30,618 bases of DNA from Chloroflexota bacterium (GTDB lineage Bacteria; Chloroflexota; UBA11872; UBA12225). Made by a program: the position numbers and the translations under genes. The DNA lies in contig DASTZM010000633.1 of the NCBI GenBank assembly GCA_035764305.1, forward strand, positions 1 to 30,618. Reading direction: 5' to 3'. Shown here one piece after another: positions 13,245-25,621 of this stretch (positions are counted from its first letter, which is position 1; each line of letters opens with the position of its first letter). Below the pieces are notes generated by a model, which saw only the letters and a program-made list of their open reading frames with translations, searched no databases and was not told where the DNA came from.

Positions 13245-13262
13245 ATCGGGGAAAACCCCGAT
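13245..13262. promoter_or_regulatory. Palindromic operator ATCGGGG-AAAA-CCCCGAT (distal nifJ site)
   Basis: Perfect 7-4-7 inverted repeat, centred 42 bp upstream of the proximal site. Confidence 0.7.
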
Positions 13263-13286
13263 CCGCTGCCCGCCCGCCGGGTGACC

Positions 13287-13331
13287 CTCAGGGTTTCCCC
13301 TGATGCACGAGCGCCCTGGGTACGTCAAGCT
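13287..13331 (+). promoter_or_regulatory. nifJ promoter: palindromic operator and -10-like element
   Basis: CTCAGGG-TTTC-CCCTGAT (13287-13304), 21 bp, CAAGCT (13326-13331), 6 nt, then ATG 13338. Confidence 0.65.
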
Positions 13332-13337
13332 GCTCGC

Positions 13338-16300
13338 ATGGTCCTTGCCGAACGCTCTCAGGCCGCCGCGACCACTGTTCCAGGCGCCTCCCAGGTCACG
13401 CTTCCCCCATCTCGGCCCGAACCGGGCAAGCCGACGTACATCACGGTAGATGGGAATGAGGCGGCCGCGCGCGTCGCCTACCGCACCAACGAGATCATCG
13501 CGATCTACCCGATCACGCCCTCTTCGACGATGGGCGAGCTGGCGGATCAATGGGCCGCTGAGGGCAAGACCAACCTGTGGGGCGCTGTGCCTAGGGTCGT
13601 GGAGATGCAGTCGGAGGGCGGCGCCGCGGGGGCGGTGCACGGAGCGCTGATGGCGGGCTCATTGGCGACGACGTTCACCGCCAGCCAGGGACTGCTCCTG
13701 ATGATCCCCAACATGTACAAGATCGCGGGCGAGCTGACGCCCGCGGTGTTCCATGTCGCCGCGCGCGCGATCGCGACGCACGCGCTCTCGATCTTCGGCG
13801 ACCACTCCGACGTGATGGCGGTCCGCCAGACGGGGTTTGCGCTTCTGGCGTCCTCGAGCGTCCAGCAGGCGCAGGACCTCGCGCTGATCGCCCATGCGGC
13901 GACGCTCAAGTCGCGCCTCCCATTCCTGCACTTTTTCGACGGCTTCCGCACCTCGCACGAGGTCATGAAGATCGAGGCGCTGTCGGACGACCAGATCCGC
14001 GCGATGATCGACGAGAGTCTCGTCCGCGCGCACCGGGAGCGCGGCCTCTCGCCCGACCGTCCCGAGCTGCACGGGGCGGCGCAGAACCCGGACGTCTACT
14101 TCCAGGGACGCGAGGCGGTGAACCACTTCTACGACGCCTGCCCGGATCGGGTCCAGCAGGCGATGGACCGCTTCGCCCGCCTGACCGGCCGCTCCTACCG
14201 CCTGTTCGAGTACTACGGCGATCCCGACGCGACTCGGGTCGTCGTCGTCATGGGCTCGGCTGCGGAGACGGTGCGCGAGACGGTAGATGACCTGCGCCTG
14301 CATGGCGAGCGCGTCGGCGTGCTCACCGTCCACCTCTACCGGCCGTTCTCCGCGGCGCACTTCGTCCGCGCGCTCCCCGCGACGGTCGAGGCGATTGCGG
14401 TGCTCGACCGCACGAAGGAGCCCGGCTCGACGGGCGAGCCGCTCTACCAGGACGTGGTCACCGCGCTCAACCAGGCCGTCGCCGAGCTCTCGGCCCCGTT
14501 CCGCCTGTTCCCGCGCGTGATTGGCGGTCGGTACGGCCTGGCCTCGAAGGAGCTGACTCCGGCGATGGCCAAGGCGGTCTTCGACGAGCTTTTGAAGACG
14601 CTGCCCAAGAACGGCTTCACCATCGGCATCCAGGATGACGTCACGTTCACCAGCCTGGACTACGACGCGCGCGTCACGCTTGAGCATCCGTCGAGCGTGC
14701 GCGCCGTGTTCTACGGGCTCGGCTCCGACGGCACGGTGGGCGCCAACAAGAACTCCATCAAGATCATCGGCGAGGAGACGCCGAACTACGCCCAGGGCTA
14801 CTTCGTCATCGATTCGAAGAAGGCGGGATCCACAACGGTTTCCCATCTTCGCTTCGGCCCACGACCGATACGCGCGCCCTACCTGATCCAGTCGGCGAGC
14901 TTCGTGGCTTGCCACCAGTTCGGCCTCCTTGAACAGTTCGACGTGCTCGCCAACGCCGAGGACGGCGCGACCTTCCTGCTGAACAGCCCGTATGGCCCGG
15001 ACGAGGTATGGGATCACCTCCCCAGATCGCTCCAAGGCCAGTTGATCGACAAGCGCATCCGCTTCTACGTCGTGGACGGCTCCACCGTCGCTCGCAAGAC
15101 CGGTATGGGTCGGCGTATCAATACAGTCCTACAAACATGTTTCTTCGCGCTCTCGGGCGTCCTGCCGCGCGATGAGGCGATCGACCAGATCAAGCGCGCG
15201 ATCAAGAAGACCTACGGCAAGCGCGGCGAGGCGATCGTGCTGAAGAACTACGAGGCGGTGGACCAGGCGCTTGCCAACCTGCACGAGGTCACCATCCCGT
15301 CCCTGGTGACGAACCAGGCGCATCCTCGCCCACCCGTGTCCGAGGCAGCGCCGGCCTTCGTCCAGGACGTGACGGCGATGCTGATGGCCGGGCTGGGTGA
15401 CGAGCTGCCGGTGAGCGCCATGCCGGTCGGCGGCGTGTTCCCAACGGGCACCGCGCAGTGGGAGAAGCGCAACCTGGCGCTGGAGATCCCGGTGTGGGAC
15501 GCCGCGAGCTGCATCCAGTGCGGCAAGTGCGTCATCGCGTGCCCGCACGCCGCGATCCGGGAGAAGGTGGTGCCGGCCGAGCTGCTCCAGGCCGCGCCGG
15601 AGACGTTCAAGTCGGCGCCCGCCCAGTTCCGACAGTTCCAGGGCATGAAGTACACCCTGCAGGTCAGCCCAGAGGACTGCACCGGCTGCATGCTGTGCTT
15701 CGAGGCCTGCCCGGTGGTCGACAAGGCCCTCCAGGCGAAGGGGGAGGTCAAGAAGGCGCTCATGATGGAGCCGCAGCCGCCGCTGCGCGAGCGCGAGCAG
15801 ACGAACTTCGAGTACTTCCTGAATCTGCCGGAGGTCGACCGGACGCTGCTCAACCCAGCCGCGGTCAAAGACGCCGCGCTCATGGAGCCGCTGTTCGAGT
15901 TCTCTGGGGCGTGCGCGGGGTGCGGCGAAACGCCGTATCTGAAGCTCCTGTCGCAGCTCTTTGGCGACCGTGCGGTGATTGCCAACGCGACGGGGTGCTC
16001 GTCGATCTACGGCGGAAACCTCCCCACCACGCCGTGGGCCAAGAACAAGGACGGCAGAGGACCCGCGTGGGCCAACTCGCTCTTCGAGGACAACGCCGAG
16101 TTCGGACTCGGTATCCGACTCTCGATCGACGAGCAGGAGTCGCAGGCTCGAGCGCTCGTTCAGCGCTTGGCGCCGGCGCTCGGCCTGGACTCGGTCGACG
16201 TGCAGGAGCTGCTCACGGCGGACCAATCGACCGAGGCCAGAATCAAAGCGCAGCGCCGGTGCGTCGCCGCACTGAAGGAGCGCCTCTCCGCGCCGGACAT

Positions 16301-24643: not shown

Positions 24644-25212
24644 CGCGCTGCCGCTCCCGGCTTTCTAATCGTCAGCTCCACCCGTTCCGCGCCGACCTCA
24701 CGTGTCTCATGGGTGTACCCCATCGCGTCCAGCCGGGGGTACAGGTAGATCGGCACGCGTGAGTGGCGTACGTGCAGCGCGCCGCCCGGCGCGAGCGTTT
24801 CCAGCGCCTCCAGGATCTTCACCATCGGCTCAGGAGGCGGGAGTCCGCTCACGTCTAGCTCGAGCGCTAGCGCCATGCCAGTCGGCGGCGGCGTCGGCGA
24901 AGTCGGCGCAACCGCCCGTTCCTCGGGGGCATCCCGCGCCGCGTCCTCCGGCAGCCCGGCAGCCGCGTTGAGCGCGCGGCACAGCTCCGCCGGCCCCATC
25001 CCTGCCACGCGCGCCGCCTGCGCCACGCTGATCCGCGGCGCGCGCAGTGCCCGCAGCACCGGGTTGCGCAGCCGGTTGAACCCCGGGTACAGCCCCGCCA
25101 GCGTCTCGAGCAGCGCCGGGTACCGGTCGAGCACGTCCGAGATCCGCCAGTCGGGATCGATCGACTCCTCGGCCCGCCGCTGCGCCGGCGCGAGCGCCGG
25201 TCCATCAGTCAT
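24640..25212 (-). CDS. DUF1858 + DUF2249 (SirA/TusA-like) domain protein
   Basis: N-terminal ISDVLDRYP...FNRLRNPVLR...SVAQAA; C-terminal LDVSGLPPPEPMVKILEAL...RVPIYLYPRL. ATGA overlap with the upstream gene. Confidence 0.78.
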   Translation of the reverse strand: MTDGPALAPAQRRAEESIDPDWRISDVLDRYPALLETLAGLYPGFNRLRNPVLRALRAPRISVAQAARVAGMGPAELCRALNAAAGLPEDAARDAPEERAVAPTSPTPPPTGMALALELDVSGLPPPEPMVKILEALETLAPGGALHVRHSRVPIYLYPRLDAMGYTHETREVGAERVELTIRKPGAAAR

Positions 25213-25544
25213 CCAGCCCACCCCAGCGCCGCGCGCCCCGCTTCGGTGACGCGCTCGGGCGACCACGCCGGCTCGAACACCAGCTGCACCCGCACCTCGC
25301 GTACGCCCGGCACGTGCGACGCGATCGCCCGCTCCGCGGCCTCGGTCAGGCTGTCGTGCAGGGGGCATCCCGGCGTCGTTAGCGTCATCGCGACGTGCAC
25401 TCGCCCTTCTGCGCGCTCGTCAAGGCCAATCCCATAGACCAGGCCGAGATCCACGACGTTGATCCCCAGCTCGGGATCGATCACCTCCCGCAGCGCGGCC
25501 AGCACGCTCTCATGGGTGATGGTGAAGGGGGCGCGGGCAGACAT
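25209..25544 (-). CDS. Metal-sulfur cluster assembly factor (DUF59 / SufT / PaaD-like)
   Basis: ALREVIDPELGINVVDLGLVY, MTLTTPGCPL, FEPAWSPE. Confidence 0.9.
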   Translation of the reverse strand: MSARAPFTITHESVLAALREVIDPELGINVVDLGLVYGIGLDERAEGRVHVAMTLTTPGCPLHDSLTEAAERAIASHVPGVREVRVQLVFEPAWSPERVTEAGRAALGWAG

Positions 25545-25576
25545 CTAGAGAACCCCGATCAAGGTGGTCGAGGTAC

Positions 25577-25621
25577 AGCCTACGCCTGTTAGGAGCCCGG
25601 CGCATCAGGGTTTTCCCCGAC
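25577..25621 (-). promoter_or_regulatory. DUF59-operon promoter: palindromic operator and -10 element
   Basis: ATCAGGG-TTTT-CCCCGAC (25604-25621), 21 bp, TAGGCT (25582-25577). Extra half-site AGAA-CCCCGAT at 25549-25559. Confidence 0.68.

Follow-up and report, generated by a model that had tools for sequence, protein, structure and literature searches.

A 22-bp palindromic box at a fixed distance from the -10 hexamer and a putative low-oxygen regulon in a soil Chloroflexota genome

The described systems closest to the promoter element reported here are the DevR/DosR dormancy regulon and those of OsdR, SsrB and NreBC. DevR boxes are centred at -42.5 and -63.5 relative to the transcriptional start (PMC3177182), and OsdR of Streptomyces coelicolor recognizes the consensus AGGGCCGATCGGCCCT, of the form GGG-N8-CCC, with a box-rich island at SCO0167-0219 (PMC5069765). 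SsrB, a NarL-family regulator of Salmonella, binds an 18-bp palindrome of 7-4-7 organisation that still functions when one of its heptamers is degenerate; it makes a difference which way the well-kept heptamer faces relative to the gene (PMC2837388). In the oxygen-responsive NreBC system of staphylococci, a NarL-family activator acts on a GC-rich palindrome before genes of nitrate and nitrite respiration (PMC8139620). The subject of the present analysis is a palindromic box that occurs four times in a 30,618-nucleotide stretch of Chloroflexota DNA (contig DASTZM010000633.1, here called the window), where it precedes a nifJ gene, a fatty-acid (fab) operon and a DUF59 operon. Like the sites of DevR of Mycobacterium tuberculosis and of OsdR, it is palindromic, its proximal copy is centred at -42.5, and the regulator proposed for it has receiver (REC) and GerE domains (PMC3177182). 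Like the SsrB site, it has a tail-to-tail 7-4-7 organisation with one dominant heptamer (PMC2837388).

The 22-bp box and its promoter geometry

A first-pass annotation of the window had reported four 18-bp palindromes, ATCRGGG-N4-CCCYGAT, beginning at 13245, 13287, 22144 and 25604, and all four are present as given. With up to two mismatches allowed, three matches to this pattern were counted in the window where 0.29 would be expected; not one shuffled sequence out of 100 reached three. The copy at 22144 departs from the pattern at three positions, yet it scores 18.3 on a position weight matrix (PWM) derived from the whole genome. The source genome (G000) is a draft metagenome-assembled genome (MAG) of a soil Chloroflexota, 4.54 Mb in 833 contigs with 70% G+C, in which the window is contig C633. 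All GGG-W4-CCC cores (W, A or T) in G000 were enumerated and their flanks compared; a symmetric PWM was then built and iterated on G000, with a score of at least 16 as the cut-off for a site and the reversed genome as control. The 18-mer proved to be real as a core, but the full unit is a 22-bp palindrome, GCATCGGGG-WWWW-CCCCGATGC, in which the 7-4-7 core is extended by GC at either end (GC-ATCRGGG-WWWW-CCCYGAT-GC). In the window this unit occupies 13243-13264, 13285-13306, 22142-22163 and 25602-25623, with PWM scores of 28.0, 21.0, 18.3 and 25.9, respectively. The genome-wide scan, which the annotation had recommended, returned 66-67 sites in G000 and 0-2 in the reversed genome; with ~67 sites, the regulon comprises ~50 promoters rather than three. 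A literature search with the box core sequence yielded unrelated matches only, such as eukaryotic sites and primers.

The boxes have a base-precise relation to a -10-like hexamer. The pattern NANNNT was found exactly 19 bp past the 22-mer on 51 site-sides, representing 49 of the 67 sites (73%), while every other offset from 5 to 44 gave 0-9 occurrences; typical hexamers are TAGGCT, TAGCGT, CAGACT and GAGACT. When the genome was searched with the proximal half (CCCYGATGC) and the hexamer only, there were 29 matches at a spacer of 19 bp versus 1-4 at spacers of 14-24 bp. In G007, a box-rich relative from a sister genus, 16 of 23 sites have the same spacing. The three proximal 18-mers in the window each lie exactly 21 bp from the hexamer (CAAGCT, 13326-13331; TAGTGT, 22122-22117; TAGGCT, 25582-25577) and each continues GATGC on the promoter side, as the annotation had described. 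The identical geometry that it saw before the three operons is thus exact, but it is shared by the 49 sites across the genome and is not peculiar to these operons.

Gene starts place the box relative to the presumed start of transcription. For nifJ and acpS, the ATG begins at the seventh base past the hexamer, so that the transcripts would be leaderless and the box centre would fall at -42.5. Three leaderless genes put the centre at this position, the transcription start being taken from the gene starts. In eight predicted targets the start codon is within 5 nt of the predicted transcription start, which is independent evidence that the hexamer is a true -10 element. The position typical of class II activation, suggested from three promoters, holds genome-wide.

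When the sites were oriented by the hexamer, the two halves of the palindrome were found to be unequal. The proximal half holds 12.1 bits versus 6.8 bits for the distal half (Wilcoxon p = 1.5e-6). Of 51 oriented sites, 45 have GATG in the proximal half and 13 have its mirror, CATC, in the distal half; the two triplets, GGG and CCC, are invariant to the same degree. The sites of G007 show the same asymmetry (14 versus 8 of 18, p = 0.012).

Genes behind the boxes

In the window, two boxes precede a nifJ-type pyruvate:ferredoxin oxidoreductase (PFOR) of 1230 aa (13338-17030, + strand; Pfam POR_N, PFOR_II, POR, EKR, Fer4 and TPP_enzyme_C). The proximal nifJ box (CCCTCAGGGTTTCCCCTGATGC, 13285-13306, + strand) is centred at -42.5 and is followed after 19 bp by the hexamer CAAGCT (13326-13331, + strand). 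The distal nifJ box (GCATCGGGGAAAACCCCGATCC, 13243-13264, no strand assigned) has a perfect 18-mer core and is centred at about -84.5, 42 bp or four helical turns upstream of the centre of the proximal box. It has no -10 element at 19 bp toward nifJ; on its opposite side, CACCCT fits NANNNT at 19 bp without a following gene. This hexamer, to the left of the box, points into the 3' end of a histidine-kinase gene. The distal box may act as an auxiliary site further upstream, or else as a promoter for antisense transcription. Conservation in orthologous promoters, which had been put forward as a test, was found for nifJ alone, in G007, where the orthologue (76% identity) has an identical proximal core, TCAGGGTTTCCCCTGATGC, followed after 19 bp by CACGCT.

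The acpS/fab operon (18136-22110, - strand) encodes AcpS, two FabA-like dehydratases, an acyl carrier protein (ACP), β-ketoacyl-ACP synthase (KAS) III and KAS I/II, in the order acpS-fabA-fabZ-ACP-fabH-fabB (Pfam ACPS, FabA twice, PP-binding, ACP_syn_III and ketoacyl-synt). Its box (CTCTAGGGGTTTTCCCGGATGC in promoter orientation, 22142-22163, - strand) overlaps the end of the radical-SAM gene upstream, at its stop codon (22158-22160), and is 19 bp from the hexamer TAGTGT (22117-22122, - strand), with the ATG at 22110. From the established biochemistry of FabA and FabB, the operon may be read as an oxygen-independent route to unsaturated fatty acids. The DUF59 operon (22158-25544, - strand) encodes a DUF59 protein, a DUF1858+DUF2249 protein, a 444-aa protein with no Pfam match and a radical-SAM/SPASM protein (Pfam FeS_assembly_P, DUF1858, DUF2249, Radical_SAM and SPASM). 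Its box (CCGTCGGGGAAAACCCTGATGC in promoter orientation, 25602-25623, - strand) begins 8 bp past the stop of the upstream cytochrome b/Fe-S gene, and the hexamer TAGGCT (25577-25582, - strand) predicts a start at ~25570 and a leader of ~26 nt. Since both boxes lie at the very end of preceding co-directional genes, both operons may also receive read-through from upstream.

The annotation had also listed a half-site, GAACCCCGATC, at 25549-25559 (no strand assigned). Its position, about +12 to +22, is inside the 5' leader predicted for the transcript; it has no partner GGG and gives no PWM match of 10 or more, and we regard it as a chance occurrence; the 9-mer CCCYGATGC occurs 117 times in G000, only 29 times in promoter geometry. 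The fab and DUF59 operons belong to the regulon by PWM score and by exact geometry within G000. No orthologue of the FabA-like protein was found in five relatives, and a metagenome scan with AcpS gave a best match of 57% identity without a box. For the DUF59 operon, the search of relatives and metagenomes yielded only unboxed paralogues of ~45% identity, and the 444-aa gene had no match. Upstream of nifJ, at 10265-13019, are genes for a cNMP-binding GGDEF protein, an OmpR-type regulator and a HisKA kinase, which are unboxed and apparently outside the regulon.

Downstream genes were examined genome-wide by Pfam scans. Boxed genes of fermentation and central metabolism include those for PFOR, a pyruvate formate-lyase (PFL)-like glycyl-radical enzyme, ferredoxin, radical-SAM enzymes, acetyl-CoA transferase and glyceraldehyde-3-phosphate dehydrogenase (GAPDH), as well as a pyruvate-kinase-like protein and B12-binding and URO-D-like proteins. 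The boxed respiratory genes encode two cupredoxin/multicopper (NirK-like) oxidases and, in one operon with CtaA and CtaB, a haem-copper oxidase; metal supply, copper chaperones included, is represented by SCO1, PCuAC, PCYCGC, CcmE, FeoB, DtxR-FeoA and MgtC. The stress genes are DoxX, PspC and those at seven of the 14 loci for universal stress proteins (USPs; Fisher p = 4e-10). Boxed regulators are Rrf2, two GAF-HisKA_3 kinase/regulator operons, an OmpR-type regulator, a MalT-like LuxR protein and two sigma-70-type factors. Targets that are boxed in both G000 and G007 are nifJ (76% identity), the PFL-like enzyme (73%), the B12-binding protein (73%), a NirK-like oxidase, DtxR-FeoA and USPs. The annotation had proposed an anoxia or redox regulon joining PFOR, lipid synthesis and Fe-S/cofactor assembly. 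The gene set is strongly anoxia- or redox-like, and as judged from the predicted gene functions its theme is anoxia or low oxygen; the link to Fe-S and cofactor assembly consists of domain names only.

Two boxes (4799 and 4874) are found on contig C446 between divergent transcription units at 134-4737 (- strand) and 4905-8509 (+ strand). The oxidase arm of this pair encodes a cupredoxin, a COX1-family oxidase, CtaB and CtaA, and its -10 hexamer TACTGT is at 20 bp rather than 19; the other arm encodes Rrf2, a second NirK-like multicopper oxidase and a protein of no known kind.

A candidate regulator and its kinase

The annotation had placed the cognate regulator outside the window. The best candidate, a NarL/LuxR-type response regulator, is indeed encoded elsewhere, on contig C339 (1335-2030), divergently from a USP gene and with a box between the two genes. 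The protein has the Pfam domains Response_reg and GerE, and its best PDB matches are VraR, DevR and NarL (E = 1e-32 to 1e-35). Orthologues were found in G007, G001 and G006 (82-83% identity) and in six further genomes (59-67%). The predicted recognition helix, VKTVETHRAHIM, is invariant in the genera designated g1, g8 and g2 and near-invariant in g7, g3 and g5, and paralogues differ from it. The first 42 codons of the regulator occur on two G000 contigs, C339 (1335-1460, in the order USP, box, regulator) and C710 (3-128, in the order B12-binding gene, box, regulator), and copies of the last 46 codons are present on C3 and C553 as well; these repeated ends suggest that the MAG contains strain variants or a duplication, or that its assembly forks here.

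Boxes accompany the orthologous regulator gene in nine relatives. In G006, G008, G010, G002 and G009 the orthologue has a box or close variant no more than about 100 bp upstream; in G011 the box is ~230 bp upstream of a partial regulator match, in G007 it directly follows the gene, and in G001 it shares an island with the gene. In genomes poor in boxes, most or all of them are gathered on the contig of the regulator. In G009 (contig C38; locus L043), a run of N between the variant box and the regulator gene masks the spacing. In G001, all six sites of PWM score 14 or more within the 12 kb examined fall within 7 kb of the regulator gene and include three of the four strict pattern matches in the genome. 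In G006, five sites of score 14 or more are within 4 kb of the gene, including three of that genome's five strict matches. The islands of G001 and G006 encode the regulator, a HAMP-HisKA_3 kinase, DoxX, a NirK-like oxidase, Rrf2 and a USP. In G006 (contig C216), an insertion sequence (IS) element with a DDE_5 transposase and DUF4096 adjoins the box island (L165, 1433-3306). The sequences flanking the boxes are not conserved, which excludes a mobile element.

The kinase adjoining the regulator (G001, L164, 7513-8697; G006, L165, 4075-5313) has HAMP, HisKA_3 and HATPase_c domains and two transmembrane segments. In G000 its gene is split between C203 (6-770) and C339 (12-371), at the left ends of both contigs, and the regulator locus is therefore contiguous with C203 (14 kb, six boxes). 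The transmembrane segments are joined by a short loop, HVK(Q/A)SPHGTHYE, which is conserved and contains two or three histidines; this loop could be a metal- or membrane-sensing element. The kinase has no known sensor domain. Directly before the kinase gene of G006 (L165, 3488-4075) is a boxed gene for a 196-aa ferritin-like/desaturase-like protein (FA_desaturase_2, di-iron type), with a homologue in G000 (C167, 6150-6590); this protein could be an accessory sensor of oxygen or nitric oxide (NO).

The box is common in few genomes. In 98 genomes of the class, the strict pattern with one mismatch allowed matched 29 times in G000 and 35 times in G007, 0-5 times in relatives of the same family and 0-3 times in the rest. 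Genomes without an orthologue of the regulator, namely G003 and eight of the nine genomes of genus g9, had no strict match; G015, of g9, had a single one with a non-A/T centre. In genera g3 and g5 a variant box, ATCRGGGWWTCCCAYGA, is found essentially only upstream of the regulator gene. These two genera thus show no wider regulon. For regulator homologues at 80 loci from other phyla, a box-like site was found, beyond G007 and G008, only at L052 and possibly at L125. These two sites, in a Chloroflexota MAG (L052, 108-129, GGATCAGGGTTTTCCCCTATCC) and a Planctomycetota MAG (L125, 3351-3372, GTTTCAGGGATTACCCTGACAA), adjoin regulator homologues of 50-54% identity outside the family.

Alternative readings, proposed model and comparison with known systems

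Taken together, these observations favour a reading, which we consider probable, in which the palindromes are operators of a global activator, the C339 NarL/FixJ-type regulator is the protein that reads them, and the ~50 promoters form a low-oxygen regulon. The computational case is firm for the motif, its copy number, its rigid spacing and its asymmetry, for the set of genes behind it and for its co-location with the regulator gene. This regulator is most likely the binding protein, activation the most likely direction of control, and oxygen or redox state the most likely signal. Several points weigh against this reading. There is no box directly upstream of the regulator gene in G007 or G001. 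G001 and G006 have regulators of 82-83% identity with the same helix, yet they have 4-5 strict matches versus 17-35 in G000 and G007; the presence of the regulator thus explains where boxes are but not how many there are. No recognizable oxygen- or redox-sensing domain was found in the linked kinase, and the signal could instead be nitrite or NO, copper, or the state of the membrane. Three other GerE-domain proteins are boxed targets and possible readers, and a sigma factor, instead of the regulator, could be what recognizes GATG, which is near-invariant at about -36 to -33. Gene starts and operon limits come from our own open reading frame heuristics, and the sequencing runs found to contain G000 sequence were soil metagenome DNA runs only, with no RNA runs among them.

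The reader could be one of those other GerE-type proteins, which we consider unlikely. The candidates are the response regulators at C228 (2315-2947) and C748 (2646-3266) and the MalT-like LuxR protein at C268 (903-3590). All three have a box upstream of their gene or operon, a perfect 22-mer for C228. The two response regulators are encoded after GAF-HisKA_3 kinases, an arrangement of GAF kinase and NarL-type regulator as in DosS/DosR, and the C228 kinase has a weak match to the GAF domain of DosT (2vzw, E = 5.5e-6). However, orthologues of the C228/C748 type were found only in G006 (69-71% identity), the best match in box-rich G007 being 45%, and for the MalT-like protein neither G007 nor G001 gave a match. 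The helices of the C228/C748 type (STIKFHVSGIL, STAKFHVSSVL) are unlike the conserved C339 type, and in G001 and G006 the boxes gather at the C339-type gene and not at genes of the C228, C748 or C268 type. A regulator of the CRP/FNR family is improbable, even though a 22-bp palindrome over the -35 region is the textbook class II layout of that family, with TCGGG-N6-CCCGA at about -41.5/-42.5 in the CRP register, and G000 encodes at least two full CRP-type proteins (C190 and C818). No strong box was found near either gene, only a match of score 10.9 at the 5' end of the C190 reading frame. The C818 protein has no close orthologue in box-rich G007 (best 40%), and box-free G003 has a match of similar identity (43%). 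The half-sites resemble neither TGTGA-N6-TCACA nor TTGAT-N4-ATCAA, and the information in the box is in the 7-4-7 core, as for GerE-type dimers.

The inequality of the two halves also admits a reading, to which we give very little weight, that the proximal half is a composite or alternative -35 element for a sigma-70-type factor of the regulon (C203, 9756-10706, or C478, 7971-8879) and the palindrome is secondary. The richer proximal half, with its GATG, would suit this, and both sigma factors are boxed targets. It is largely rejected by the distal half: in 27 of the 29 promoters found with the proximal half alone, the distal GGG is in register at the exact symmetric position. In addition, GGG is as invariant as CCC, many sites are near-perfect 22-bp palindromes, and a spacer of 19-20 bp is long for recognition of -35 and -10 elements by sigma-70. 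Hardly credible, finally, is that the palindromes are hairpins, either terminators or repeats similar to repetitive extragenic palindromic (REP) sequences, or a repressor operator with no fixed link to polymerase. The consensus could fold into a 9-bp stem with a 4-nt loop, and two of the window copies lie right at the 3' end of an upstream co-directional gene. At all nine pairs of symmetric positions, however, the Watson-Crick fraction equals the expectation for independent halves (for pair 6/17, 0.40 observed versus 0.42 expected), and the full stem is possible in only three of the 67 sites; this absence of covariation argues for a protein site and against a hairpin. No U-tract follows the palindromes, and base-precise spacing to a -10 element in 73% of sites is unexpected for terminators, repeats or a plain repressor.

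If the C339 regulator is the activator, control might operate as follows. The 22-mer, at -53 to -32, would take the place of the -35 element, 19 bp upstream of the NANNNT -10 hexamer. A phosphorylated dimer of the NarL/FixJ-type regulator, whose partner would be the two-transmembrane HAMP-HisKA_3 kinase, would bind the 22-mer through the VKTVETHRAHIM helix and contact RNA polymerase as a class II activator, like DevR/DosR at -42.5. The ~50 promoters would ready the cell for low oxygen by pyruvate fermentation through PFOR, the PFL-like enzyme and ferredoxin, with copper nitrite-reductase-like oxidases, the haem-copper oxidase operon, copper and iron supply and USPs as further outputs. The GAF kinases, sigma factors and Rrf2 would make up a second tier. 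In the window, the predicted outputs include the oxygen-independent FabA/FabB-type fatty-acid operon and the DUF59/DUF1858/DUF2249/radical-SAM operon.

A bolder scenario, which we offer tentatively and hold to be possible rather than probable, concerns the origin of the regulon. A LiaS-like intramembrane HAMP kinase with the SPHGTHYE loop and a NarL-type regulator may have begun as a self-contained island (DoxX, NirK-like oxidase, Rrf2 and USP, with 5-6 boxes) and become the master switch of ~50-70 promoters of facultative anaerobiosis in two genera of soil Chloroflexota; the proximal heptamer with its GC would then be a joint element for the regulator and sigma region 4 that replaces the -35. 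If true, this would document the rapid, explosive expansion of a regulon and, for an uncultured lineage of phylum level, a new grammar of activator-dependent promoters. The difference between genomes that have 5-6 local boxes and those that have tens, with one recognition helix throughout, is a clean natural example of regulon growth. Transcriptional control is almost unstudied in the uncultured soil Chloroflexota, and the analysis provides a complete and testable regulon: a precise 22-bp box, base-exact geometry, ~50 promoters, a named candidate regulator and kinase, and a replicate in a sister genus. Genes for PFOR, the glycyl-radical enzyme, the copper nitrite-reductase-like enzymes and the FabA/FabB lipid route are predicted to be switched on upon exhaustion of oxygen. 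Metatranscriptomes can be read with the help of the box, which also allows unknown genes to be annotated by association, for example the DUF59/DUF1858/DUF2249/radical-SAM operon.

Among known systems, NreBC differs in several respects: here the linked kinase lacks a PAS/Fe-S domain, no NreA-like partner adjoins it, and the regulon is far larger. Because the linked kinase is a two-transmembrane HAMP-HisKA_3 protein without a PAS/Fe-S domain, we do not regard this as an NreBC system. The NreC box, which we take to be TAGGG-N4-CCCTA although the literature consulted confirms only a GC-rich palindrome, would have the same GGG-N4-CCC spacing. Class II promoters of CRP/FNR likewise have a 22-bp palindrome in place of the -35, centred one helical turn upstream of it, but the half-site sequences differ and the candidate CRP genes are neither boxed nor track the motif. 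The SsrB heptamer has a different sequence and its spacer is degenerate, versus a strongly A/T 4-bp centre here; its promoter distance is not fixed, whereas here it is fixed to the base, and the biological role of SsrB is unrelated.

The likeness to DevR and OsdR extends to autoregulation, linkage to USPs and a box-rich island at the regulator gene (PMC5069765). The regulon content is also similar, with many USPs, ferredoxin, genes of anaerobic metabolism and GAF-HisKA_3 kinases. In contrast, the triplets are four A/T bases apart here, as opposed to GGG-N8-CCC in AGGGCCGATCGGCCCT (PMC5069765). At the positions aligned with DevR in 3c3w, the C339 regulator has KTVETH where DevR has KTVKNY. Of DevR K179, K182 and N183, which we assume to be DNA contacts, the C339 regulator keeps the first Lys alone, reading K, E and T. 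The kinase adjoining the regulator is of the HAMP type and not a tandem-GAF haem kinase, and the two single-GAF HisKA_3 kinases are members of the regulon, not partners by position. The box with N4 rather than N8, the differences at two of three contact positions and the HAMP-type kinase place the system outside the DevR/DosR family. Promoters with a single box are in the majority here, whereas at DevR promoters there are always two to four, and the phylum is Chloroflexota, unlike the hosts of DevR and OsdR. What emerges from the comparison is that the regulon and the box are new, that the kind of regulator is known, and that the lineage is one without characterised transcription factors.

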